A stretch of DNA of 64,000 bases from Candidatus Aphodoplasma sp. (GTDB lineage: Bacteria > Bacillota > Clostridia > UBA1381 > UMGS1253): positions 65,832 through 129,831 of the forward strand of contig JAZQIM010000014.1 of NCBI GenBank assembly GCA_045541115.1. Reading direction: 5' to 3'. The notes under the pieces are model-generated. The model was given only the letters and a program-made list of their open reading frames with translations, was not told the origin of the DNA and made no database searches. A program made the position numbers and the translations under genes. Shown piece by piece: positions 32,128 to 41,696 of the stretch (position 1 is its first letter; every line of letters begins with the position of its first letter).

Positions 32128-33003
32128 CTATTTCTCCGTGTCAAATTTTTCGTATACCTTATATTCGTCCCATATTTTTTCAAGCTTTTCAAAACTGTCA
32201 ACAACTTCGCTCTTCTTTTTCATGCTTATTGCTACCATAAGTGCATTTATAACGCTCAATGGCGCTACAAGTGAGTCAACAAACGATACCATATCGCTCT
32301 TTGCTACAAGTGACATATCTGCTGCTTCCGCTATGGGCGAAGATGAGCTGTCTGTTATTCCGATAACTGTCGCGCCCTGATTCTTGGCATAATCAATCGC
32401 CTTCAGTGTTCTCGTTGAATAACGCGGAAAGCTTATAGCAATTAAAACGTCGTCTTTTTCAATTCTGAAAATCTGCTCAAAAAGCTCACTTGCCGTACTT
32501 GTCTGCACGTGGCGTACATTCGGCGATATAAGGTTTAAATAAAAGCTTAAAAAAGATGCAAGCGCCGCAGAGCTGCGCACACCTAAAATATACACTCTTT
32601 TTGCATCTACTATAGCATCTGCAATCTTTGCAAACTCTACTCTGTCAATTTCATTTAGCGACAGGCGTATGTTTTCCATGTCGGCATCAAGCACGCTTTT
32701 CAATATGTCATTTTCCCCTATTCTGTCTGTCGCAACACCGACTCTTTGCGCCGCCGTAAGCTGTGTGCATATGATTGCACGAAGCGCTTTTTGCATGTCG
32801 GGATATCCGTCATAACCAAGCTCACGCGCAAAACGTACAACTGTCGATTCACTCACGCCTACTGATTTTCCAAGCTTTAGTGCCGTAATATATGCAGCTT
32901 TATCATATTGCTCGGCTATAAACTCTGCAATACGCTTCTGTCCTTTGCTGAAATTTTTCATATTGTCATTTATTCTCGAAAGAATATTATCTGACTTATC
33001 CAT
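32128..33003 (-). CDS. MurR/RpiR family transcriptional regulator
   Basis: N-terminal HTH_6 (GKSVGVSESTVVRFARELGY) plus a SIS domain. Confidence 0.85.
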   Translation of the reverse strand: MDKSDNILSRINDNMKNFSKGQKRIAEFIAEQYDKAAYITALKLGKSVGVSESTVVRFARELGYDGYPDMQKALRAIICTQLTAAQRVGVATDRIGENDILKSVLDADMENIRLSLNEIDRVEFAKIADAIVDAKRVYILGVRSSAALASFLSFYLNLISPNVRHVQTSTASELFEQIFRIEKDDVLIAISFPRYSTRTLKAIDYAKNQGATVIGITDSSSSPIAEAADMSLVAKSDMVSFVDSLVAPLSVINALMVAISMKKKSEVVDSFEKLEKIWDEYKVYEKFDTEK

Positions 33004-33043
33004 TTTTTACTCCTTACTGCTACTTTTTCATATAACATATATT

Positions 33044-33715
33044 TTACCAAACAAATGGTATTAAACGATACTTTATTTTTTTCTTGTATTCACAATATCC
33101 ATCCAGATTCTTCTCAAGAAATTCTTCTTCGCTTTTTAGTCTTTTAATAATTATATATGGATATGCAAGAAAAATTATAAATGAATATATCGAGCCCAGG
33201 ACAAGTGGCATCGACAAAAACATAAGCAGTGTCGCACTATACATCGGGTGTCTTACAACACTATATAGTCCCGTTTCAATAACCCTCTGATTCTCACAAA
33301 CTTCAATAACGCGGCTAAGATATTCGTTTTCCCTAATCACTTGTGCATAAAGAATATATCCGCAAAGAAAAATTATTACAGCAATAATAACCGCCTCTTT
33401 GGGCAAGGTGTACCATCGAAAACGAAATGTCAATCCCGCAACGATAAGCCCTGTTAAAAACATAATTGCGCTTAATATAACAAGCACCTTTTGTTCTCGA
33501 TGTTTTTCCGTTGCTTTCAATCTCTTTTTCAATAATTCAGGCTTTTTTAACATCATCACAATTCCTGTCAAAAGCATTGGCACAAACAAAATTCCCATAA
33601 ATAGCCATGCATTTTTGAAGAAAATGTCTCCGGCAGATAAAAAAAGCGACAAGCCAACTAAAATTATACCTGACAGCAGCTTTGTTATCGCCTGAACAAA
33701 TAATTTCATACTCAT
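33044..33715 (-). CDS. Isoprenylcysteine carboxyl methyltransferase (ICMT/PEMT)-family membrane protein
   Basis: 223 aa, 5-6 TM segments, C-terminal block ETGLYSVVRHPMYSATLL ... EEEFLEK. Appears to have its own -10 TATAAT about 50 nt upstream. Confidence 0.65.
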   Translation of the reverse strand: MSMKLFVQAITKLLSGIILVGLSLFLSAGDIFFKNAWLFMGILFVPMLLTGIVMMLKKPELLKKRLKATEKHREQKVLVILSAIMFLTGLIVAGLTFRFRWYTLPKEAVIIAVIIFLCGYILYAQVIRENEYLSRVIEVCENQRVIETGLYSVVRHPMYSATLLMFLSMPLVLGSIYSFIIFLAYPYIIIKRLKSEEEFLEKNLDGYCEYKKKIKYRLIPFVW

Positions 33716-33770
33716 ATGTTTTCTCCATAAATTTTATTTACCTTTTGGAAGCATTAACGCCTTGATTATA

Positions 33771-33803
33771 AAGACTGTGTAAACTGGATGACAGTCTTTT
33801 TTT
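33771..33803. repeat. Junction module H, copy 1 (hairpin aagactgt/acagtctt plus T7 on the plus strand), upstream of the ICMT-like gene
   Basis: 8-bp perfect stem, 12-nt loop, T-run on the plus strand. About 80% identical to 36431-36462. Confidence 0.7.
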
Positions 33804-33805
33804 AA

Positions 33806-33843
33806 ATTGCGAGGCATAAGGTTTAGATGCAGATCTTTTTTAA
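33806..33843. repeat. Junction module D, copy 1 (3' side of the RT gene)
   Basis: attgcgaGGcataaggtttagatgcaGATCttttttaa. It shares attgcga and a 17-nt identical core (33815-33831) with copy 2. Confidence 0.8.
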
Positions 33844-33866
33844 CTCCATATCACATAAAGTTAAAG

Positions 33867-34805
33867 TTAAAAAATATTTTGCTTTTCGGTAAATTTGATT
33901 TTATCTATCAACCATTTTTTATAACCCATCATTTCGACATTTGCCGCATCTACTGATAAAACATAATTAACCTTTCCAAGCAATTTTTTCAAATAATCTT
34001 GTTCACTTATATCGAGCTGTTTTTTCTGTAAATGAGATGCTACACCAAATTTTTTACAGTAATACAATTCCTGTCTGATTTTCTTTCTGTATGACAACGA
34101 TGTATTTATTTTTTCATTTACTATAATACCTGTAACAATCTGTTTTTGTCCTTTGCGAGCAACAGTCGTTTTTGCATCATTAAGATAAAAACCCATTTTT
34201 TTAAGCTCTTCTTTTACAAACTCAATCACTTCTCTGTGGTTAAAAGCACCTGAAAAAGTCATATCATCGCAATATCTGCTATATCTTATTTTTCTTTCTT
34301 TACACCATGCACCAACTGCATTATCAAAGTCTTTCATAATAATATTTGAAATAATCGGTGATGTTGGTGCACCCTGAGGCAAAGCATCTTTATATAAGCA
34401 AAGTATTGATAACAAAATACGATTCTTTTCTGAGTATTTTTCTTTAACAAAAACCTTTTCTTTAACCATAGGATAAATTATGTGGTCAAAGAAATGTCTG
34501 ATATCCAATTTAAGTATAGTATTTTGCTTAAGGTGTGGATAAGCATTCTTAACGGTTGAAGCACCATATTTATATGCTGTTGCATATGGTGAAACCTCTT
34601 CATATACAAGAAGTTTTTCAGCTATTCTTTTTTGCACTGCCTTCAAAAATTCATTTGGAACAGAAAGTTCTCTATATTCTCCGTTCTTTTTCAAAATTTT
34701 TGTTTGATAATAGTGTGAATGAATATGGTTGCTAAGCGAGTATAATGCTTTTGCTGAAACACCAAGGTCATTCGTCAAAGAGGAAAGCTCCTTATATACA
34801 ATCAT
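33867..34805 (-). CDS. Retron-type reverse transcriptase
   Basis: 312 aa from ATG 34805 (AGGAGG 8-13 nt upstream). RT blocks LDIRHFF and LPQGAPTSPIISN, and catalytic YCDD (nt 34263-34274). Retron signatures NAYPH (NAxxH, nt 34533-34547) and VTG (nt 34128-34136). No maturase or endonuclease domains. Confidence 0.88.
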   Translation of the reverse strand: MIVYKELSSLTNDLGVSAKALYSLSNHIHSHYYQTKILKKNGEYRELSVPNEFLKAVQKRIAEKLLVYEEVSPYATAYKYGASTVKNAYPHLKQNTILKLDIRHFFDHIIYPMVKEKVFVKEKYSEKNRILLSILCLYKDALPQGAPTSPIISNIIMKDFDNAVGAWCKERKIRYSRYCDDMTFSGAFNHREVIEFVKEELKKMGFYLNDAKTTVARKGQKQIVTGIIVNEKINTSLSYRKKIRQELYYCKKFGVASHLQKKQLDISEQDYLKKLLGKVNYVLSVDAANVEMMGYKKWLIDKIKFTEKQNIF

Positions 34806-34830
34806 TATTAAACTTTCCTCCTTTCTGAAT

Positions 34831-35009
34831 GTTGTGGAACAAAACAATGTGAATTACGATGTTGTGTAGCTGTATTTTAGCCCATGAAGTGGGCATTTAT
34901 ATACAGCGAAATCAACTTCGTATGAACGAAGTGAATACTTATAAATGTTACTTCCCAACAACGACTCGTTGTCGGTGTCAAAGTTTATTGACTTGCTCTT
35001 ATGTTCCAC
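34831..35009 (-). ncRNA. Predicted retron msr-msd non-coding RNA
   Basis: Read on the minus strand. a1 is GTGGAACAtAA (35009-34999) and pairs with a2 TTtTGTTCCAC (34844-34834). Candidate branching G at 34998 (or 34996, in an AGC). Hairpins at 34977-34992, 34955-34975, 34915-34932 and 34869-34907. a2 ends 29 nt before the RT ATG. A TATAAT box lies 7 nt upstream of a1. Confidence 0.55.
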
Positions 35010-35015
35010 TTTTTT

Positions 35016-35021
35016 ATTATA
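35016..35021 (-). promoter_or_regulatory. -10 box (TATAAT) positioned to start transcription at the a1 arm of the predicted retron RNA
   Basis: The minus strand reads tttcagTATAATaaaaaaGTGGAACA. The upstream region is AT-rich and has no good -35 hexamer. Confidence 0.35.
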
Positions 35022-35086
35022 CTGAAATCACTATCCTATAAAAAGGACAATGAAACAATAAACCAATTTGAGAACTACATATTACT

Positions 35087-35108
35087 TTTCGACATTATTC
35101 GACATTCT
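35087..35108. repeat. Junction module U, orphan copy upstream of the retron promoter (no ORF, RBS lost)
   Basis: Minus strand: gaaTGTCGAAtaaTGTCGAAAag, a tandem TGTCGAA at a 10-nt period. Confidence 0.7.
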
Positions 35109-35112
35109 TTAT

Positions 35113-35149
35113 ATTGCGACACATAAGGTTTAGATGCAAGTGTTTTTAA
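35113..35149. repeat. Junction module D, copy 2 (3' side of the 136-aa ORF, upstream of the retron RNA)
   Basis: attgcgaCAcataaggtttagatgcaAGTGtttttaa, with core at 35122-35138. Direct orientation, 1307 bp from copy 1. Confidence 0.8.
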
Positions 35150-35187
35150 GATCAAGTTCGTGGTCAGTAAGGAGTAAAAACATCTTT

Positions 35188-35598
35188 TCATTGGAACCTA
35201 TTCGTCGGAATACTTCCCCACCTTAATCCGCTATACAATAATGCATCAATGTGCGAAATCAAATTTAACAACACCATTTCTCTATTTATATCGAACTTAT
35301 GCTCATCGTCACCTTTAAATTCGTGAGATTTTTCATCTAAGTTTACAAATGTCTCCAAGGTTATATATTCTAACAGATTTGCTTCTGGTCCCACAATAAT
35401 ATCACCTTTTTCAAATGAGTAATATGGATTTGCAAACCCCACTTTTTCGGTTCCGTCGAGCAATGTGCATTTTATTTTCATACCATGACAATGCTTGATG
35501 GTAATTCTATTAATACTTTCTGTTTTTTCAATTTTACCATTTTTATAGTAAGTAATTATATTCATGTTGGTATATAACCTTTCTACAATATTTGACAC
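35188..35598 (-). CDS. Hypothetical protein (125-136 aa), directly upstream of the retron RNA
   Basis: The ORF track start at 35598 is a GTG; ATG 35565 (MNIITYYKNGK...) is an alternative start. Beta-rich N-terminal half and helical C-terminal half. No family recognised. Confidence 0.45.
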   Translation of the reverse strand: MSNIVERLYTNMNIITYYKNGKIEKTESINRITIKHCHGMKIKCTLLDGTEKVGFANPYYSFEKGDIIVGPEANLLEYITLETFVNLDEKSHEFKGDDEHKFDINREMVLLNLISHIDALLYSGLRWGSIPTNRFQ

Positions 35599-35600
35599 AC
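35578..35600. repeat. Junction module U, diverged copy at the 5' end of the 136-aa ORF
   Basis: Minus strand gtgtgtcaaatattgtagaaagg matches the 35904-35924 copy at 16 of 22 positions by my alignment. Confidence 0.45.
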
Positions 35601-35614
35601 TTTGCTATGCTTTA

Positions 35615-35642
35615 TGTTAAGTTAGGACAAAAGATTATTCTG
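35615..35642. repeat. Junction module G at the 3' end of the 85-aa ORF (covers the last codon, the stop and ~20 nt)
   Basis: Minus strand: cagaataatcttttgtcctaacttaacat. Confidence 0.7.
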
Positions 35643-35892
35643 TAACCTCTACAATTCCTTTTGACTCTAAAAATCCAATTAGCTTTTCAAGATATGCTAA
35701 TCGTTCGTGGTTTATCGGCGGATTTTCCATATATCCTAAATCACCACCAACACTTTCATAACTTTCTTCGCAATAACACATATGCAAAAGATATCCCCAT
35801 TCCAATTCAGCGCTACCTTCATTCAATAGCTTTTCAAATGTTTCAATCGGCTCATTTTCAAACATCATCATTATTAAATCATGTTCTTTCAT
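35635..35892 (-). CDS. Hypothetical small acidic protein (85 aa), immunity-protein-like in size and composition
   Basis: Good RBS (AAAGGAGA 9 nt before the ATG). No motif recognised. Confidence 0.45.
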   Translation of the reverse strand: MKEHDLIMMMFENEPIETFEKLLNEGSAELEWGYLLHMCYCEESYESVGGDLGYMENPPINHERLAYLEKLIGFLESKGIVEVTE

Positions 35893-35903
35893 TTTAAAGT
35901 TCT

Positions 35904-35924
35904 CCTTTCGACATCTTTCGACAC
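35904..35924. repeat. Junction module U at the 5' end of the 85-aa ORF (includes its RBS)
   Basis: Minus strand: gTGTCGAAAgaTGTCGAAAGGAGa, followed by the ATG. Confidence 0.75.
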
Positions 35925-35937
35925 ATCCATATGGTTC

Positions 35938-35965
35938 ATGTCGGATTAGGACAAAAATTATTCTG
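35938..35965. repeat. Junction module G at the 3' end of the PsiE-like ORF
   Basis: Minus strand cagaataatttttgtcctaatccgacat matches about 22 of 26 positions of the 35615-35642 copy. Confidence 0.7.
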
Positions 35966-36386
35966 CCTTCTCATTATCAGCAATCTCTACAAAACCGTCG
36001 GGGGTTTCTACCATATCATGACGATTGAACAAAAATCTTCTGACAACAAAAAGTATCGCAATAGCTGCAACTGTAATCAAATTTTCCCAAGGGGCAGCAT
36101 GTCCTACTATCAACTGTCGGGCAAGGGCAAACGCTAAAACCTCAATAATGGTTTCAGGGGTGTGCTTGCAAAGCATTTTTATAAGCTCAGCACCAATAGC
36201 AAGTGTAATTGCCCTATCCAAAATCACGACAAGCGAATCTATACCGTGTTCAATAAACGAAATATTAAACATATCTATCACTATCCACACAGCCAGAATG
36301 ACTACTGCAAGGCTCACAATAAGTGATATAAAAAGCTCTATAAGATAGCTTATCTCAAACATTTTGTCTTGAAGTTTTTTTCTCAT
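35958..36386 (-). CDS. PsiE-like (phosphate-starvation-inducible E family) small membrane protein
   Basis: 142 aa, four TM segments. The pattern AIGAELIKML ... LAFALARQLIV.H..PWE.L...AIAILFVVRRF parallels E. coli PsiE as I recall it. Confidence 0.5.
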   Translation of the reverse strand: MRKKLQDKMFEISYLIELFISLIVSLAVVILAVWIVIDMFNISFIEHGIDSLVVILDRAITLAIGAELIKMLCKHTPETIIEVLAFALARQLIVGHAAPWENLITVAAIAILFVVRRFLFNRHDMVETPDGFVEIADNEKAE

Positions 36387-36430
36387 AATATTTTCTCCTT
36401 TGTATTTGATTTTGCATTTATCCGTTTATG

Positions 36431-36462
36431 AAGACTGTATAATCCGGATGCCAATCTTTTTT
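36431..36462. repeat. Junction module H, copy 2 (degenerate), upstream of the PsiE-like gene
   Basis: aagactgtataatccggatgccaatctttttt compared with aagactgtgtaaactggatgacagtcttttttt. Confidence 0.65.
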
Positions 36463-37006
36463 AACAATAATTAGTGTAGAAATATCCCTTATTTACATAT
36501 TCACTAACCAAATCTGATTTTTTATCTATTTCACCTGTAACCAACTTTAAATATGTATAAAATATACGTATTTCTTCTCTATCCAAAGTCATAGTAAAAA
36601 CATTTGAACCCATAGCACCATCGTCGCACCAAAAATGAATATTAAAATCAACAGATATATCCAATGTTACAGAGCCATCCTTATACCAAACTTTACCCGG
36701 CTCACTGTATAATGTTGTTATTGGACTCATATCAAATTCAAAATCGGGTTCTGCAAATCTAACAGTGCATCTTTCTTTCATATTTCCTTCTAGCAAATCT
36801 TTAAATACACTTTTCAAATAGTCTATTTCATCGTTTAGAAAAGCCTCCCAACCTTCAATATTATAATTAATGTACTTACTTTTTAAGGAAAAGTTTGTGT
36901 TGCACCAATCATAATCTACAGTCTCTTCAGTCGGTTTTTTATAATTATATATTTCAAACCATAAGTCCACATCACATATATTCATATGCAATTTCAACTT
37001 TTCCAC
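36461..37006 (-). CDS. Hypothetical protein, tentatively WapI-like immunity protein
   Basis: 181 aa. The segment DYDWCNTNFSLKS...FLNDEIDYLKSVFKDLLEG recalls the WapI pattern DYWDANWLK...L..DLKRFYESLQKL. The true start may be an internal TTG or ATG (about 36994 or 36985). Confidence 0.35.
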   Translation of the reverse strand: MEKLKLHMNICDVDLWFEIYNYKKPTEETVDYDWCNTNFSLKSKYINYNIEGWEAFLNDEIDYLKSVFKDLLEGNMKERCTVRFAEPDFEFDMSPITTLYSEPGKVWYKDGSVTLDISVDFNIHFWCDDGAMGSNVFTMTLDREEIRIFYTYLKLVTGEIDKKSDLVSEYVNKGYFYTNYC

Positions 37007-37008
37007 CT

Positions 37009-37031
37009 CCTTTCAACAAATTTCGACATTC
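37009..37031. repeat. Junction module U at the 5' end of the 181-aa ORF (includes its RBS)
   Basis: Minus strand: gaaTGTCGAAAtttgTTGAAAGGAGG. Confidence 0.7.
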
Positions 37032-37067
37032 TTACTATCATCACCTTATCTTAAGCCAAAAACTCTA

Positions 37068-37385
37068 TTAGTCGTCTGCATCTTCATCAAACGCTTCAAT
37101 ATAAAAGCTTACAGGTCTAAAGCCGTCATTACATGAAATCATTGCCGACCTTTTATTTTTCATCCATCCATTATATAAATTTTCGCCGCCATGTGACAGG
37201 GCCATTACAAAAGAGGACATACTTTCCCAGGCACTATCACATAAACCATCGGGCTTTTTCCATCCGTTTGCGATAAAAGTTTGCCCTTCCTTCAAATCGC
37301 AGGCATGCTCTATCGGATTTTCATATTTTTCTATTAAATCATCATAACGGGCCATTCTCATAACTGTTATTCTGCATTTTTTCAT
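37068..37385 (-). CDS. TIGR04076-family small protein
   Basis: 105 aa. MKKCRITV...C.L.EGQTF...P.G.C..AW......CNDGFRPV.F.IE matches my recollection of the TIGR04076 consensus. Confidence 0.55.
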   Translation of the reverse strand: MKKCRITVMRMARYDDLIEKYENPIEHACDLKEGQTFIANGWKKPDGLCDSAWESMSSFVMALSHGGENLYNGWMKNKRSAMISCNDGFRPVSFYIEAFDEDADD

Positions 37386-37441
37386 AGTAATTCTCCTTTT
37401 ATAGTGCTACACTATTGACAAAATCAAAAATCTATCAATTC

Positions 37442-37470
37442 ATTTTATCATTAAATCTACGGATAGTCAA
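37442..37470 (-). promoter_or_regulatory. Sigma-A-type promoter for the small-ORF array (TTGACT-17-TAAAAT)
   Basis: Minus strand: -35 at 37470-37465 and -10 at 37447-37442. It lies downstream of the GGDEF gene terminator and about 55 nt upstream of the TIGR04076 ATG. Confidence 0.5.
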
Positions 37471-37488
37471 TTTCATCCACAAAACTTT

Positions 37489-37525
37489 ATAAAAAAAGCT
37501 TTAAAACAATACGTTTTAAAGCTTT
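37489..37525 (-). terminator. Intrinsic terminator after the GGDEF gene, separating it from the small-ORF array
   Basis: 13-bp stem aaagctttaaaac/gttttaaagcttt with T7 on the minus strand. Confidence 0.8.
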
Positions 37526-37598
37526 TCGTTAAAGCACATTATTTCTTTCCGCAAACAAGTTCTATGATTAAAGCACCCATATCAATCATTAGAACAAA

Positions 37599-39920
37599 TT
37601 AGTCTTTGGCAAAAATCCAAAGGGTTTCATCGGCATCCTCACTGTTTTCATTTAGACTGTATATACTCAAAATTACCGTTTCTCCGTTCATTTTCTTATA
37701 CGTTATCTTTGGCGTTAACCCTTCTGCTATTTCTCTCTTTATTGCATCATAATTCAAAAAACTTATGACAGCCCTATGGAAATCAGGGTGCACATGCTCA
37801 TCTATGTATTCTTTCAAAAGATGAGAAAAATTATTTTCGTCCTCATTATATCCGAGATAAGACGGCATAAGAATGCGATGTGCATTGTCACTTACTAAAG
37901 AAACTCTGTAAATTCCATTATAATGTTCTTTTAAAACAGAAAGCATTGCATCAATTTCTCTAATTCCCGTTTTCGTCTGAACATATTTTTTATCAACATC
38001 TTTAGCTATGGTGCTCTGTTCCTTGTTCTGATAATACTGCGCTTTCGCCTCATACATTCTTATTTCCGCTTCGCGCACCATTTCTTCACAATTTGTATTC
38101 TGCTTTCTATATGACATACCGATAGCAACCTTGTAGTCCGTAGATTCTAATTGTTTAATAAATATTTGAACTTTTCTCTTTGCCCGCTCCTGTGTAACAT
38201 TTTTTGCAAAAACCAAGAACTCATCGCCACCCATACGGTAAACTCTATGCCCAAAAAATACTTCCTTTAGCGTATTTGCAATATAAATAAGCATTTCATC
38301 GCCTGCAGCATGGCCGTATTTGTTATTTCTTAAATGAAGTTCGTTAACATCAATATAAACACATGCAAAATCTTCCGGTTTTTCTTCATCGAGCAACAGA
38401 ATATCCTTTTTGTATGATACACGATTAAGTGCTCCGGTAAGTGAATCGGTCACAGCTGCCGTTTCCGTCCTATTTAAATGATTTTTATTATATATCGCTA
38501 TAGAAAAACATACTGCTACATCTTCTAACAGGTCTCTTGCTGTGCGTTTTTTCTTTGTGTTTATAACACCAAGAACACTTGCATGATTGTTTTTATCTGT
38601 AATAGTTGCAAACGAAACATGATCTATTTTGTGTTCTTTCAACAATTCATAAAATTTTATGTTTGTTTTCATAAGGTGCTTATCAGGTTTAATATGCATA
38701 AATCCTACAGTTAGGTGGCTGGCACTGTACAGGTTTGCAGCATAGCGGAAAAGCTCACCAAGAAAGTACTTCTTTTCTTCACCTGCAAGAAGGTGAACTT
38801 TGAACGAAGGCATAACATAGCTATAATCTTCTCCGTCGGTATCAACAAAAAACGCAGATCTTGATGATGATAAACCTTGTACACTTTTTAATGCCTCAAA
38901 CACATTCCCATGTTGCTGATTGATTTCCAAAAGAAGTTTTCTAATCCGCGACGCATATGATATTACCTTTGCACGACGTTTTTCTACACTTAAAACAAAA
39001 AGCAAATACACTACGATAATCAATATCATTAATGCAAAAGTTACAAGCAGTATTCTTGAAATCTCGTGTGTTCTTGCAAAAACCTGAGACTCATACCTGG
39101 CAAGCAAAATGCCCCAGTCAAAATCTTCGATTGTAGAATAGTGAACATATAAATCTTCACCTGTAAATATTGATTTAAACGAAGAATATCCTTTATCTGT
39201 TGTAACAAGTTGCTCATATGAATAATCATCATTATATTTACGGTTTTTTAACTCTGATATCTCACCGGGATATCTGTTTATAGTATCAATAAGATATTTT
39301 CCGTCTTCTTTATCATAAACAAAAAGCTGTGCATCAAACTCTTTGGCCATATCATTATACTTTTTATTGATTGTTTCAATCTTAATAATGCCATACATCA
39401 TACCAACCGTTTTCCCATTCACCCTAATGGGAACTGCACTTCTGATAACCTCTTCGCCGGGAATAGAATAGCTTTGTGTTCTGCCGGTAATATGTTCGCC
39501 AATAAGCGCTTCATCTGCAAAGGAAATTTTGCCATCTAAATCATATGTTCCATCTTTTGTAATAAAGGTGTTATCCGGATTTAAAATTCCAATTCTTGAA
39601 AACAGACCAATGGGTTTAAACGAATCAAACATAAGACTATAACTTTCTCCGCCGGCATATAGTTTTGCCGCAAAGTTTGCCATCGTAATAAGATTTTCAC
39701 GATCAGACTTCATCTGGAGTGTCAAGTCGTCTTTAATCTGTTTCGTCTGTATATGAAGCATCTCATACGCCTCATTTTCTGCCTCATAGTAAAAAGAAGC
39801 AACCAACGATAAAAACACCACACATATTAGAAACGCAGCGACGATCGTGTAAAAATTATTATTTTGTCTATGCTTTTTTCCCCCATATTTTGTAGCCATT
39901 CTGTCAACATCTTCTTTCAT
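37599..39920 (-). CDS. Membrane sensor diguanylate cyclase (extracytoplasmic Cache-like domain, cytoplasmic linker domain, GGDEF domain, extra C-terminal domain)
   Basis: Two TM helices flank a ~250-aa extracytoplasmic region. The GGDEF domain has an intact YRMGGDEF. About 120 aa follow the GGDEF domain. Confidence 0.8.
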   Translation of the reverse strand: MKEDVDRMATKYGGKKHRQNNNFYTIVAAFLICVVFLSLVASFYYEAENEAYEMLHIQTKQIKDDLTLQMKSDRENLITMANFAAKLYAGGESYSLMFDSFKPIGLFSRIGILNPDNTFITKDGTYDLDGKISFADEALIGEHITGRTQSYSIPGEEVIRSAVPIRVNGKTVGMMYGIIKIETINKKYNDMAKEFDAQLFVYDKEDGKYLIDTINRYPGEISELKNRKYNDDYSYEQLVTTDKGYSSFKSIFTGEDLYVHYSTIEDFDWGILLARYESQVFARTHEISRILLVTFALMILIIVVYLLFVLSVEKRRAKVISYASRIRKLLLEINQQHGNVFEALKSVQGLSSSRSAFFVDTDGEDYSYVMPSFKVHLLAGEEKKYFLGELFRYAANLYSASHLTVGFMHIKPDKHLMKTNIKFYELLKEHKIDHVSFATITDKNNHASVLGVINTKKKRTARDLLEDVAVCFSIAIYNKNHLNRTETAAVTDSLTGALNRVSYKKDILLLDEEKPEDFACVYIDVNELHLRNNKYGHAAGDEMLIYIANTLKEVFFGHRVYRMGGDEFLVFAKNVTQERAKRKVQIFIKQLESTDYKVAIGMSYRKQNTNCEEMVREAEIRMYEAKAQYYQNKEQSTIAKDVDKKYVQTKTGIREIDAMLSVLKEHYNGIYRVSLVSDNAHRILMPSYLGYNEDENNFSHLLKEYIDEHVHPDFHRAVISFLNYDAIKREIAEGLTPKITYKKMNGETVILSIYSLNENSEDADETLWIFAKD

Positions 39921-40050
39921 ATGTATGATTATGTATTGATATTGTACTATAAATCCCTAATTTTTTCAAGTATATATTTTTAAATATTATCATCTCATCG
40001 AACTTATTTATGAAATAAAATTAAACAAACAAAAAAAGTAACAAAAAAAC

Positions 40051-40079
40051 TAGACATTTTATGGTAAGAGTGCTATAAT
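40051..40079 (+). promoter_or_regulatory. Promoter for nagB (TAGACA-17-TGcTATAAT, extended -10)
   Basis: -35 at 40051-40056, TGn at 40071-40073, -10 at 40074-40079. Confidence 0.5.
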
Positions 40080-40140
40080 AAATGCGTTAGATTATTTTTA
40101 TAATTTGCTATTTACAAACAAATAAGGAGAGTGCTTTAAA

Positions 40141-40926
40141 ATGAAACTTGTCATTAAGAAAAATTATGATGAAATGAGCGCATGGGCAGCACAGCACATT
40201 GCTGATGCAATTAATAACCACAAAGAAGCTCGCCCATTTATACTTGGTCTTCCAACCGGTTCATCGCCTCTTGGTGTGTATAAAAAGCTCATCGAAATGA
40301 ATAAGGCAGGCGCCATAAGTTTTAAAAACGTCGTAACTTTCAACATGGATGAATATGTAGGTCTTCCAAAAGAACATGACCAGAGTTATTGGTATTTTAT
40401 GCACGATAACTTCTTCAATCACATTGACATCCCAAGCGAAAACATCAATATTTTAAACGGTATGGCTGATGACCTCGAAGCTGAGTGTCAGCGTTATGAA
40501 GACAAAATCACTTCATATGGAGGCATAGACCTTTTCCTGGGTGGCAGCGGTGTAGATGGTCACATTGCTTTCAACGAGCCATTCACTTCTCTTACATCCC
40601 GCACAGGTATACGCGCACTTACTCAGGATACACTAATCGCAAATTCACGTTTCTTTGATAATGATCCGAACAAAGTACCAAAGACTGCTCTTTCTGTTGG
40701 TGTTGGTACAGTATGTGACTCTAAAGAGGTTCTCCTCGTTATAAACGGACATAACAAAGCACGCGCACTTCGTCACTGTGTTGAAGGCGGCGTTGACCAT
40801 GCTTGGACAATAAGCGCACTTCAGCTTCACAAATGTGGCGTTATCGCTTGTGATGAAGCTGCATGCGGCGAATTAAAAGTTGACACATACAAGTATTTTA
40901 AAGAAATTTACAAAGACGAGAAATAA
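40141..40926 (+). CDS. nagB: Glucosamine-6-phosphate deaminase
   Basis: 261 aa. [18 protein letters not shown] and [14 protein letters not shown]-type blocks. Confidence 0.94.
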
Positions 40927-40945
40927 TTATTTAAACTATAACGCT

Positions 40946-40981
40946 AAAACCTCCCATGATTTATTTCATGGGAGGTTTTTT
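40946..40981. terminator. Terminator after nagB (also serves the convergent flavodoxin gene)
   Basis: 12-bp stem aacctcccatga/tcatgggaggtt followed by T6. Confidence 0.85.
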
Positions 40982-40988
40982 GCAAGGA

Positions 40989-41522
40989 CTATTCATCACA
41001 TTTTATATAATTTACCAACTCGGCAATCTGTGTGCGGTCAGAAAAATCACCATCTGCATCACACAACTCTATCAGTAGTTTTTCCATTTCCGTAGGCTCT
41101 TTTTTCGAGCCCATTATCTTCTTTAAAGTTTTCAAAGCCGCTCTATGTACTGCACTAAGCTCATTTATAATCATTTTGCCTGTAAAATTAAAAATCTTTA
41201 CACCTTCGGGCAATCCGTTTTTGAAATTCTTTTCAATAACAAGTTTATCATAATACTCACGGCAATCAAGCGGCGTTATGCCCGTAGTGTATATTGCTAT
41301 TTTTTTATTTTTAAACCTGTCAATATTCTTCATGATAAGGCTTACACCATTTATGATTTCTGCATACAGCCCTCCTCCGTATATTATTGCATCATATTTT
41401 TCAAGTTCATCTATCGTAATCTCTTTTGCATCTGCTGTTTTACAATTAAGTTCTTCCCCTATCCATTCGGCATATGTTTTCGTTGAACCGTATTTCGTTT
41501 TGTAAACTACAATTGTATTCAT
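40989..41522 (-). CDS. Flavodoxin-domain protein
   Basis: 177 aa. N-terminus VVYKTKYGSTKTYAEWI is typical of flavodoxin-like (HemG/flavodoxin_5-type) proteins. Confidence 0.55.
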   Translation of the reverse strand: MNTIVVYKTKYGSTKTYAEWIGEELNCKTADAKEITIDELEKYDAIIYGGGLYAEIINGVSLIMKNIDRFKNKKIAIYTTGITPLDCREYYDKLVIEKNFKNGLPEGVKIFNFTGKMIINELSAVHRAALKTLKKIMGSKKEPTEMEKLLIELCDADGDFSDRTQIAELVNYIKCDE

Positions 41523-41696
41523 AAAAACAACCTCCCTTATGCTAGTATATTCAGTATATATGATTGTTAAGTATATTTAACCTATCATAAAGTCACAAAT
41601 AAAAATCATTTTACTTACCTTATCACAAAAATCAGCGACAGTCAATTCCAAAGCAAAAACCCTCTTCGTAAGTCCTTTTAAAATCACTGTTTATTC

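Follow-up and report, generated by a model that had tools for sequence, protein, structure and literature searches.

An Ec107-like retron bounded by copies of a recurrent 3'-end unit, and its likely place in an integron-like array of gene cassettes

Integrons, and the clusters of attC sites without an integrase known as CALINs, consist of head-to-tail, co-oriented and mostly single-ORF cassettes, each ending in a conserved site. The locus described here lies in a 64-kb stretch of DNA (the window, meaning the whole stretch that was analysed) and is alike in this respect: an Ec107-like retron and several small genes follow one another in the same direction, and short units which we call D, H and X stand at their 3' ends. 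As in integrons, the same cassette (here those of the retron, a 125-aa ORF and an 85-aa ORF) occurs in different arrays and species, cassettes are present or absent at strain level with precise junctions, and a promoter-like site stands at the array head. As in CALINs, no integrase lies beside the array. In contrast to integrons, whose attC sites are imperfect palindromes with RYYYAAC and GTTRRRY cores and fold as single strands, no IntI is found here, and D is an asymmetric unit of 27 nt without the R''/L''-L'/R' palindrome, the GTTRRRY core or a stable single-strand fold. A conserved 5' leader, U, is present on the cassettes of this locus and lacking in those of integrons. The host is a Firmicute, and D is nearly identical across about 100 species instead of being array-specific.

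Pneumococcal BOX, REP/BIME and the Correia elements of Neisseria are short conserved intergenic modules present in multiple copies and variable order, and in the minimal mobile elements of Neisseria accessory genes are exchanged between conserved flanks. The variable order in which X, D, H, U and GC hairpins are combined recalls BOX, REP and Correia elements. However, D is strictly gene-oriented and separates single-gene units; it is neither palindromic nor TIR-bounded, and its orientation is not free of the genes, as would be required of a REP, BOX or MITE element. We know of no means by which retrons move.

The rAID-1 arrays of Bacteroidales have intergenic repeats described as reminiscent of integrons, and active gene acquisition is evident in them (bioRxiv 10.1101/471110). 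Gut bacteria as hosts and small co-oriented genes including immunity homologues (here a WapI-like one) are common to both, but rAID-1 is defined by a 5' XerD-family recombinase gene in front of its low-GC immunity genes, and no such recombinase gene is present in this array. Repeat sequence and phylum are different, too, and the present array carries a retron. The pdif/dif modules of Acinetobacter (PMC6449649) are likewise small, without a recombinase of their own, and have short conserved sites served by host XerC/XerD in trans. On plasmids, these sites form 28-bp XerC-6-XerD dyads that alternate in orientation, whereas D copies are direct, asymmetric and chromosomal. Compared with Xer-dependent dif modules and IMEX, D has no second arm; only TTATGT resembles a XerD arm.

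The retron itself is comparable to Retron-Eco5 (Ec107) of E. coli, with which it shares the PADLOC RT family and the unusual YCDD box (PMC6868368). Both measure about 1.3 kb, consist of msr-msd and RT only and have no associated effector (PMC7736814); both are intergenic in the core chromosome without mobile-element genes nearby, and Ec107 was reported to show no trace of mobility (PMC6868368, PMC7736814). Starvation and stationary phase induce Ec107, and the present copy stands behind Spo0A-type boxes. Ec107, however, stands in place of a 34-bp palindrome and is not flanked by repeats (PMC6868368), whereas the present retron is bounded by U and D and is found at several sites.

The retron cassette and its two D copies

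The retron and its flanking units comprise the following features.

33806-35112, minus strand: retron cassette, the putative unit of exchange (U, promoter, msr-msd, RT and D1)
35150-35180, minus strand: X module preceding D2
35113-35149, minus strand: D2, 3'-end unit of the preceding 125-aa ORF cassette (unit proper 35113-35138, TG allele)
35085-35112, minus strand: 'orphan' U module, 5' end of the retron cassette, with tandem TGTCGAA-N3-TGTCGAA at 35088-35104 and no RBS or ORF behind it
35016-35021, minus strand: TATAAT, -10 box for transcription of the retron ncRNA and RT, placed 6 nt upstream of a1
34834-35009, minus strand: retron ncRNA (msr-msd)
35002-35009 and 34834-34841, minus strand: a1 and a2, forming the 8-bp helix that closes the ncRNA
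34992-35000, minus strand: AGC with the candidate priming G
34869-34907, minus strand: msd hairpin
33867-34805, minus strand: retron RT, 312 aa from ATG
33806-33843, minus strand: D1, 3'-end unit of the retron cassette (unit proper 33806-33831, gene sense TGCATCTAAACCTTATGCCTCGCAAT, CC allele; A-rich left flank up to 33843)

The RT matched the PADLOC family RT_Ec107-like (2.4e-128) and Pfam RVT_1 (4.5e-22), and its translation contains the motifs specific for retron RTs (NAxxH of region X, YxDD and VTG) as NAYPH, YCDD and VTG. The ncRNA is given by a consensus fold of seven homologues with 49 pairs and -56 kcal/mol, in which the a1/a2 helix, the msr stem-loops and the msd hairpin are conserved and the AGC is present. 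Compensatory changes were not seen among the seven because their sequences are too similar. The -10 box is conserved in the related loci L001, L003, L141, L143 and L148. An Rfam scan of 32900-36500 with E up to 10 yielded only chance matches to snoRNA and miRNA families; the retron ncRNA and D are therefore outside the curated families. No co-inherited effector gene was found: the neighbours of the RT differ in every context, and those in the window have no PADLOC match. As far as sequence can tell, the retron is an Ec107-like (Retron-Eco5-like) orphan without effector. A search of metagenomes with the RT revealed distant relatives only (at most 56% identity), and the retron cassette had no match among phage sequences.

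The original prediction described a pair of direct repeats with an identical 17-nt core, enclosing nothing except an orphan U module, the -10 box, the msr-msd and the RT. Repeat search and exact matching gave the same positions, orientation and core, and the content of the interval was confirmed, all of it on the minus strand. D1 and D2 are spaced by 1307 bp in direct orientation, and at this spacing the repeat search of the window aligned 33798-33840 with 35105-35147 (43 nt, 84% identical). The 17-mer CATAAGGTTTAGATGCA, found exactly at 33815-33831 and 35122-35138, has no further match in the 64 kb even if three mismatches are allowed; with this threshold, shuffled sequences contained 0.28 matches on average, and two matches were reached in three of 100 shuffles. 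A chance origin of the pair is excluded since the same 19 specified bases recur exactly in at least 119 stretches from other genomes. Two clusters of differences separate D1 from D2. GG versus CA corresponds to a dinucleotide that is dimorphic in the whole family (in gene sense CC in 51 copies and TG in 68), and GATC versus AGTG falls in the poorly conserved A-rich left flank of D. Judged by their place in the family, the two clusters are not random drift.

The array and its predicted Spo0A boxes

Between the ICMT gene and the GGDEF gene of the window, two resident genes and four inserted cassettes, among them that of the retron, are arranged head to tail.

33765-33805, minus strand: H unit, a paralogue of D (A-run, GACTGTCATCCAGTTTACACAGTC and TTTATAAT), promoter-like for the ICMT gene (CTGTCA-18-TATAAT, 10/12)
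35113-35606, minus strand: 125-aa ORF cassette (ORF 35188-35565, listed with GTG as its start and 136 aa; 5' boundary in front of AGCAAAGTGTGTCAAATATTG)
35607-35930, minus strand: 85-aa ORF cassette (U 35907-35923, ORF 35635-35892, X'' 35607-35633), absent from L123
35931-36426, minus strand: resident 142-aa PsiE-like gene with X' unit (35931-35957), present in L123/L124 and there followed directly by H
36427-37035, minus strand: 181-aa WapI-like immunity-protein cassette, Pfam PF24716 (U 37012-37028, ORF 36461-37006, H-type unit 36427-36456)
37036-37470, minus strand: resident 105-aa gene (37068-37385) with H'-type unit (37036-37062)
37442-37470, minus strand: promoter-like site heading the array (TTGACT-17-TAAAAT with TG, 10/12)

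By its recognizable parts, a cassette is a U leader with tandem TGTCGAA boxes (and an RBS), one ORF and a 3' unit of type X, D or H, and such cassettes follow one another between core genes; in the last one of the window, the retron takes the place of the ORF. Because D marks the 3' ends of cassettes, the upstream 125-aa cassette ends in D2 and the retron cassette in D1. The H unit at 33765-33805 is resident sequence at the array end, as it is present in the sister strain L123/L124. The X' unit of the 142-aa gene is the insertion point of the three distal cassettes, and the 181-aa cassette sits exactly between GGTGATGATA and AACGGATAAATGC of L123. The left boundary of the 125-aa cassette is base-identical in three contexts (behind D in L151 and L152, behind X'' in the window). 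For the 85-aa cassette, a DNA copy with 89% identity was found in a different array (L037), and a DNA match of 79% to the resident 105-aa gene lies in L024. A distant homologue of the 125-aa protein (L153) is part of an array of small ORFs without D or U; the protein family is therefore older than the repeat system.

The boxes of U are in tandem with 10-bp phasing and match the 7-bp core of the Spo0A 0A box, TGTCGAA (PMC3485338), which often occurs as a tandem spaced by one helical turn. They read TGTCGAATAATGTCGAA at 35088-35104 and TGTCGAAAGATGTCGAA at 35907-35923; the U at 37012-37028 has one perfect box and a degenerate second copy, TGTTGAA. In sequence, U matches a Spo0A operator with predicted 0A boxes, through which Spo0A probably controls the cassettes as well as the retron promoter. 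The 64-kb window contains no spo0A gene; SpoVAD is present. X as an inverted copy of U, which would give TIR-bounded cassettes or pairing of 5' and 3' UTRs, was rejected on complementarity (12.2 for U and X of the same cassette, 12.5 for cross-pairs and 12.4 after shuffling).

The D unit in other genomes

The gene-oriented consensus of the 27-nt unit is aaaAAnGTT-TGCATCTAAACCTTATG(TG/CC)TCGCAAT. It recurs exactly in at least 119 stretches from 99 MAG assemblies (species-level) of uncultured gut Clostridia, a source in which chimeric contigs are possible. The 8-kb pieces read around the loci contain 162 instances of D, with at least 160 intergenic sites where there is no retron. D is found on several contigs of one MAG and in many species. 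The contexts of the retron and of the other cassettes were drawn from homologues, as the exact ICMT, RT and RpiR proteins of the window are absent from the collection.

Conservation is about 2 bits per position over the unit and drops sharply right after CGCAAT. D copies are co-oriented with their flanking genes: among 135 internal copies, 101 have the stop of an ORF on the same strand within 200 nt upstream, and 84 an ORF start within 200 nt downstream. Same-strand intervals of less than 2.5 kb between copies (n = 36) have a median of about 540 nt, and the spacing in arrays is mostly 0.4-1.6 kb. A co-oriented ORF of at least 40 aa is present in 33 of the 36 intervals, with one dominant ORF each. 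At least one TGTCGAA box follows D in 69 of 159 copies and a tandem in 30 of 159; the spacing from D to U is variable (0, 7, 9-10 or about 20 nt). Viral contigs are essentially free of D (one match), and the D-U junction had no match among plasmids.

D shows no dyad symmetry and no stable or shared hairpin (z-scores -2.1 to +0.3), and for three of four regions ending in a D unit the DNA-fold z-scores were about 0. An attC-like or terminator-like fold was rejected, as most copies fold no better than shuffled sequences. The only candidate stem, AAGGTTT/AAACCTT, was discarded on account of its non-conserved left arm, and so was a pairing partner for the dimorphic TG/CC site, for which mutual information is at most 0.06 bit with every flanking column. 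The TG/CC allele tracks neither the upstream nor the downstream cassette. Other modular repeats were noticed near D, namely GC-rich double hairpins, arrays of TCGATAT hairpins and ORF-less palindromic elements of 180 nt. In the literature, the D sequence is absent in a relevant context, its sequence strings matching unrelated papers only, and such arrays are not described in Firmicutes.

Exchange of cassettes and its possible basis

The same retron cassette, 86-99% identical, is found elsewhere behind and in front of different cassettes. The copy in the window (33806-35112) agrees with L003 245-1544 at 98.4% identity, and the flanks are unrelated on either side; the retron keeps D in both, and the homology stops exactly at 33806. 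Its left end, consisting of D, U and promoter, also stands behind other sequences in L004 and L148/L149. The unit upstream of the retron is D in the window, L004 and L148, X-like in L003 and H-U in L143/L146, and in L001 there are degenerate D copies on both sides. Relatives without a unit at one or both ends (L002, L141 and the 3' side of L143) imply that the retron also moves or persists outside the cassette system. The left boundary is fuzzy in L003, where the first 45 nt or so (ATGGATAT versus ATAAAGAA) are far more diverged than the rest; this graded edge looks more like gene conversion within U than like a fixed crossover.

In the sister strain L123/L124, identity is 98% for ICMT and 97% for the flanks over 5.8 kb. 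The array is preceded upstream by adh_short in L123 and, in the window, by the gene of a GGDEF protein. The sister strain has neither the 181-aa cassette nor the block of the 85-aa, 125-aa and retron cassettes, and the junctions are clean. This is the one strict pair of filled and empty sites, with two junctions, and its difference can be an insertion or a deletion. At the empty site of the three-cassette block, an X-type unit abuts H directly without a D copy. The units at the strict junctions differ in type (X' versus D1, H' versus H) and are about half identical over some 27 nt. BLAST block ends were rejected as a map of crossovers: 46 of 118 pile up at the 3' edge of D, which is uninformative because D is invariant, so that a crossover point within or beside D is unmappable. 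A synteny pair, L035/L085, was dismissed as evidence, consisting of ordinary genes only.

These comparisons bear out that the repeats are homologous 3'-end modules, D2 of the 125/136-aa ORF cassette and D1 of the retron cassette, and that the retron travels as a module, since the same cassette occurs in other arrays and genomes. The objection that D could be a common intergenic repeat unrelated to cassette ends is right in the first part, D being common and present in many genomes, but not in the second, as D is tied to cassette ends. An empty site with a single D had been expected, and the only strict empty site has none. The proposed gain or loss of the retron by recombination between D1 and D2 found no support: three cassettes are missing together and without D, so that a simple D1 x D2 crossover does not account for the difference between the observed strains. 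For ordinary homologous recombination, the flanking units are too dissimilar.

We favour, with a probability of about 0.58, a reading in which D1 and D2 are copies of a lineage-wide 3'-end unit and the retron is one cassette of an integron-like array with a trans-acting recombinase. Cassettes would be gained and lost by recombination at the junction of the 3' unit (...CAAT, ...CCAT or ...ATA) and the following U. The enzyme, we infer, would most likely be a sequence-specific recombinase encoded elsewhere in the genome, given that the insertions lie between units sharing only about half of their bases and that the vicinity has no recombinase gene. No integrase, transposase or recombinase was found among 39 Pfam-scanned ORFs of the 64-kb window, nor a recombinase in the Pfam labels of those L123 genes that match the remaining ORFs of the window. 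Across the 119 loci there is no recurrent recombinase cluster; no family occurs in more than 12 loci, DUF559 being the commonest. If excised as a circle, the retron would join its own 3' unit to its own U (...AAACCTTATGCCTCGCAAT/ATAAAGAATGTCGAATAATGTCGAAAAG, in short form ...TGCCTCGCAAT/ATAAAGAATGTCGAATAATG), and the product of a retron-only deletion would read 125-aa ORF, X, D and TTAAAAAAAGACTGTCATCC. More tentatively, and at less than even odds, herbivore-gut Clostridia may carry an undescribed site-specific cassette system with D, X and H in the role of attC, Spo0A-operator leaders, a remote recombinase and mixed cargo. The cargo would then include immunity-like genes, DUF559 nuclease genes and orphan Ec107-type retrons.

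Alternatively, D, H, X and U could be conserved expression modules (promoter-like unit, Spo0A operator and RBS leader) of a regulon of small accessory genes without a dedicated recombinase; the shuffling of cassettes and the repeats around the retron would then be side effects of homologous recombination or gene conversion acting on short conserved sequences after DNA uptake. A notation as -35/-10-like elements is possible for D (TTtGCA-18-CAATAT) and H (TTGGCA-17-TTATAT), with 10/12 for the H before ICMT, the tandem 0A boxes of U are arranged as in textbooks immediately upstream of the RBS, and without exception the units run in the direction of the genes. A TG/CC site unlinked to either flank is expected if exchange takes place within the repeat, and the graded left edge of the retron cassette in L003 and the absence of a nearby recombinase fit as well. 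We regard this explanation as the main rival, though less likely than the reading favoured above. Half-identity over about 27 nt is far below what RecA-type exchange needs, and a near-perfect 27-nt sequence in 99 assemblies combined with variable U spacing is odd for a sigma-A promoter. A sigma-70 scan scored H and the array head at 10/12 and D-U below threshold, with 23 hits in the region versus 21.4 expected. The retron cassette, moreover, keeps U despite its own -10 box and without an ORF for U to serve.

That D is a selfish REP/BOX/MITE-like intergenic repeat, with two copies by chance beside the retron and an incidental cassette pattern, seems improbable. Its multi-copy and strictly intergenic occurrence, on several contigs of one MAG and in many species, and its association with other modular repeats would suit such an element, but D lacks a palindrome, a stable fold and terminal repeats, is oriented according to the genes beside it, and moves with the upstream cassette, as the retron keeps D in the window and in L003. 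Exactly one co-oriented ORF in 33 of 36 inter-copy intervals argues in the same direction. The reading of the repeats as a long target-site duplication or attL/attR from retron insertion, by retrotransposition or a retron-specific integrase, has hardly any probability left despite the direct orientation, the identical 17-nt core, the tight fit around the retron and a homology of L002 with other retron copies that spans, as an RNA-derived copy would, from at or within a few bases of the ncRNA 5' end to shortly past the RT stop: D stands at no fewer than 160 sites without a retron and is missing from the empty site of the sister strain, one and the same retron can have D, an X-like unit or H upstream of it, and D1 and D2 differ at the dimorphic site of the family. 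For D1 and D2, the distribution of D already refutes a target-site duplication, which the original prediction had also discounted.

To return to the retron as a cassette, the locus resembles the array of an integron, and both its phylum and its site architecture are without earlier description in such arrays. With no integrase adjacent, this points either to a recombination system not yet known or to very short homologies being used with unusual efficiency, in uncultured gut bacteria that are abundant. A close relative of Ec107 appears here as an exchangeable cassette with defined ends, in several contexts and beside an empty site, so that the spread of orphan retrons becomes a testable question. 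If the tentative reading of an undescribed site-specific system is true, a retron that no prophage carries would here have its first concrete vehicle for horizontal transfer. The Spo0A boxes of the leader point to control of accessory and defence cassettes by the switch to stationary phase and sporulation, and this predicted wiring echoes the starvation induction reported for Ec107.

Direct repeats D1 and D2 and the retron between them

As every gene of the region lies on the minus strand, gene sense denotes the window's reverse complement. Both sequences quoted in the original prediction were found at 33806-33843 (D1) and 35113-35149 (D2). Alignment and a repeat search revealed a 43-nt direct repeat with 84% identity and 1307 bp spacing. 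The exact 17-nt core occurs twice in the window; no third copy was detected in the 64 kb, even with up to three mismatches tolerated. The previously noted GG/CA difference between D1 and D2 coincides exactly with the dimorphic TG/CC site of the D family, the dinucleotide lying at 33815-33818 and 35122-35125 (plus strand). The interval between the repeats is a complete minimal retron.

Features of the retron between D2 and D1
35088-35104, minus strand: tandem TGTCGAA-N3-TGTCGAA in the 5' part of the interval
35016-35021, minus strand: TATAAT box
35002-35009 with 34834-34841, minus strand: closing helix a1/a2 of the ncRNA, 8 bp
34869-34907, minus strand: msd hairpin; the ncRNA also has msr stem-loops
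34805-33867, minus strand: reverse transcriptase (RT), 312 aa, after a strong RBS, with NAYPH, YCDD and VTG motifs

The RT is Ec107-like according to PADLOC (2.4e-128). YCDD is a catalytic variant known in Ec107 (PMC6868368), and the Ec107 branch is the one without a known effector (PMC7736814). None of the ORFs adjoining the retron matched a PADLOC defence model. The genes downstream of the array, for an ICMT/PEMT-family membrane methyltransferase (33044-33715) and an RpiR regulator (32128-33003), show 98% identity in the sister strain. Both are conserved core genes outside the retron system, which rules out the ICMT gene as an effector of the retron. An 11-bp imperfect hairpin (33844-33866; TTTAACTTTAT-GTGAT-ATGGAGTTAAA) directly follows the RT stop, between the ORF and D1. 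It is kept with the cassette in the homologous contig L003, and may be a terminator or stabiliser.

The D unit and the modular cassette array

D is not a retron feature. A sequence scan of species-representative genomes found GCATCTAAACCTTANNNNTCGCA in at least 119 stretches spanning at least 99 different MAG assemblies. Among the matches listed, the MAGs are labelled Clostridia, Oscillospiraceae, Acutalibacteraceae, Ructibacterium, Congzhengia and Ornithomonoglobus, come mostly from goat, sheep, yak, deer and buffalo gut, and were made with several different assemblers. The comparisons rest entirely on contigs from MAGs or metagenomes, many of them short. Viral contigs contained one D copy; the D junction with U, a 5' leader with TGTCGAA boxes, had no match in the plasmid collection and the retron cassette none in the phage collection.

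In 152 copies, the information content is about 2 bits per position throughout the block TT-GCATCTAAACCTTATG-(T/C)(G/C/A)-TCGCAAT. Directly after CGCAAT, conservation falls to background; the 5' side shows just a weak A-run. The single variable site is essentially dimorphic (TG, n = 68; CC, n = 51), and its allele is linked to neither the upstream nor the downstream cassette. There is no sign of D acting as an RNA structure, this site sharing at most 0.06 bit of mutual information with every flanking column. An attC site was rejected, as neither a GTTRRRY core (by eye) nor a common hairpin was found. Single-strand DNA folds of four unit-ending regions gave z-scores of -2.1 to +0.3 on both strands, and in the sole plausible D stem, AAGGTTT/AAACCTT, the right arm is invariant and the left arm poorly conserved. 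Cassettes bounded by terminal inverted repeats were rejected because U-X complementarity (X being another 3'-end unit type) equals that of shuffled sequences. The wide occurrence of D at non-retron sites and its absence from the sister-strain empty site exclude a target-site duplication.

D always has the orientation of the adjoining genes. A same-strand ORF stop lies within 200 nt upstream in 101 of the 135 copies that are not close to a contig end, and in 84 an ORF begins within 200 nt on the downstream side. The 5' side is occupied either by a GC-rich double hairpin or, following the stop codon, by an X module (TTTTTnnnCCTAACTTGAYAYGAAC...). The 3' side holds U, (ATGGATA/ATAAAGAA)TGTCGAAnnnTGTCGAAAGGAG, followed by the start codon; a further unit, H (TTGGCATCCAGATTATACAGTCTTTATA; 18 copies); a TCGATAT-hairpin array (7 copies); or unique sequence. 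At least one U box follows D in 69 of 159 copies, the full tandem in 30. D, H and the X tail are mutually alignable (yCATCyAnA..TTATnnnnTC...AT/ATA) and are treated here as putative paralogous 3'-end units. Same-strand D-to-D intervals below 2.5 kb (n = 36) have a median of ~540 nt; 33 contain one dominant co-oriented ORF and the other three are ORF-less. In the window, everything between the GGDEF and ICMT genes follows the same grammar.

Layout of the array in gene sense (minus strand; cassettes in parentheses, primes denoting variants)
5' half: promoter-like site (37470-37442) - 105-aa gene - H' - (U, 181-aa WapI-like gene, H)
Continued: 142-aa gene - X' - (U, 85-aa gene, X'') - (U', 125-aa gene, X, D2)
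3' end: (U, retron, D1) - H - ICMT gene

The retron is thus one cassette of a modular array, in which D2 closes the preceding cassette and D1 the retron cassette that follows it.

Among the matches listed, the commonest ORF beside D is a DUF559 (Vsr-like endonuclease) gene of ~120 aa, with 13 copies at 12 loci. These include L148 3756-4121, L031 778-1147 (minus) and L022 5971-6175; further associated loci are L005, L025, L059, L068, L081, L107, L110 and L116. GC-rich inverted double-hairpin modules bracket at least four DUF559 copies. ORF-less versions of ~180 nt, with both modules 5-14 nt apart, lie between two D units and resemble a MITE derived from the DUF559 element. Another module family consists of TTGCATTGCAAAGCAATGCA followed by iterated units of TCGATAT plus a short variable hairpin. 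It lies 3' of D in L022 (6657-6720), L030, L088, L105 and L110, and 5' of D in inverse orientation in L023, L082, L109 and L115, the inverse array (ATATCGA...) standing at the opposite end of the interval.

Exchange of cassettes between arrays and strains

Cassettes, including the retron, have been exchanged between arrays and species, and strains differ at the unit/U junction. Window 33806-35105 matches L003 with 98.4% identity; the homology extends exactly to the final base of D1 and, in the other direction, breaks off within U. The retron of L003 is preceded by a different ORF that ends in an X-like unit (...GACATGAGCAAT), and U, a DUF4288 gene and another D-U follow downstream. The D-U-promoter left end of the retron recurs in L004 and L148/L149 after yet other sequences; L148 has an X-like unit plus H after the RT, and in L143-L147 the retron follows H-U. 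L001 carries it among housekeeping genes with a degenerate D copy on each side, and L002 and L141 without the modules, which were lost or never present.

The 125-aa cassette starts with exactly AGCAAAGTGTGTCAAATATTG in three contexts, after D in L151 and L152 and after X'' in the window. The 85-aa cassette recurs in a second array, L037 (89% DNA identity), L024 contains a 79% DNA match to the resident 105-aa gene, and many further blocks of 0.3-1.2 kb are common to several MAGs with unrelated flanks.

A GAGTGTGGTATAAT promoter-like box, located some 170-230 nt 5' of the ncRNA, is common to the retrons in housekeeping contexts of L002 (1545-1730) and L001 (5540-5700). Additional features of L002 are a structured segment rich in GC and the ATTTAGCTAAAAA motif, which stands ahead of D in L083, L088 and L090; the homology of L002 to other retron copies runs from the ncRNA 5' end (or a few bases off) to shortly past the RT stop. 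Very many contigs with the retron RT or the 125-aa gene (RT homologue list; L149, L151, L152) are just 0.7-2.5 kb long and break inside D, X or H units. Such assembly breaks at repeats fit one cassette in several contexts within one sample.

The sole strict filled/empty pair is the window and the sister strain (L123/L124), with 98% identity of the ICMT protein and 97% in the flanks over 5.8 kb. The sister array contains the 105-aa and 142-aa genes only. There GGTGATGATA and AACGGATAAATGC are continuous where the window has the 609-nt cassette of the 181-aa gene (36427-37035), and GACATGAACCATC and TTTAAAAAAGACTGTCATCC where it has 2125 nt (33806-35930), comprising the 85-aa, 125-aa and retron cassettes. 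No D is present at this empty site. Between adh_short and the array, the window (37386-41696, compared with L123 8838-9018) has a further ~4 kb with flavodoxin-like, glucosamine-6-P isomerase-like and dCache-GGDEF protein genes; the array therefore lies within a more general strain-variation hotspot.

Mechanism, regulation and relation to known systems

We favour a sequence-specific recombinase that would act in trans to move the cassettes. This reading is preferred because the units flanking each strict insertion differ in type (X' and D1; H' and H) and are only about half identical, and the 125-aa cassette begins with a boundary that is base-identical behind two unit types. Insertions always start with U and finish with a unit, and the retron cassette retains U while needing neither its RBS nor its promoter context. 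The 27-nt unit is also far more conserved than its surroundings across ~100 species, with a knife-edge 3' boundary. The array has ordinary core-chromosome surroundings (ATP synthase, citrate synthase, ArgRS, Ddl, Pta-Ack, SpoVAD), and no integrase, transposase or phage gene was found among the 39 window ORFs scanned against Pfam. Counting against a recombinase, no such enzyme was found there, and no recombinase family recurs among the at least 119 D loci listed. D lacks dyad symmetry, the retron cassette edge in L003 is graded, and the TG/CC allele is unlinked to both flanks, which fits frequent exchange within repeats by any mechanism. The main rival, conserved expression modules recombining through short homology, appears rather unlikely to us.

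The abrB operator carries, immediately upstream of the RBS, two perfect tandem 0A boxes at 10-bp spacing. The Spo0A 0A box has TGTCGAA as its core, a sequence that the proteins of Bacillus and Clostridioides recognise in the same way (PMC3485338). The gene strand of the window has nine perfect boxes (3.4 expected), five of them in U modules, and the host is a spore former (SpoVAD); the cassettes may be under Spo0A control. At the retron, the U boxes lie about 70-90 nt upstream of the -10 box. Induction by starvation and stationary phase has been reported for E. coli Ec107 (PMC6868368), which is no more than a suggestive parallel. In D, the TG allele gives rise to another near-consensus box (TGTCGCA), which the CC allele abolishes.

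The system behaves like integron cassette arrays, especially integrase-less CALINs. It is also similar to the rAID-1 immunity arrays of Bacteroidales (bioRxiv 10.1101/471110), whose intergenic repeats are integron-like but whose defining feature is a XerD-like gene, and to the Xer-driven dif modules found on plasmids of Acinetobacter (PMC6449649). Neither IntI plus attC, nor a 5' XerD-like gene, nor dyad Xer sites were found here; the system works like all three and is a member of none. A full-text literature search for the D/U sequences and for integron-like arrays in Firmicutes returned nothing relevant. In this array an Ec107-type orphan retron, the textbook example of a retron that shows no trace of mobility, forms a defined cassette that can be exchanged.
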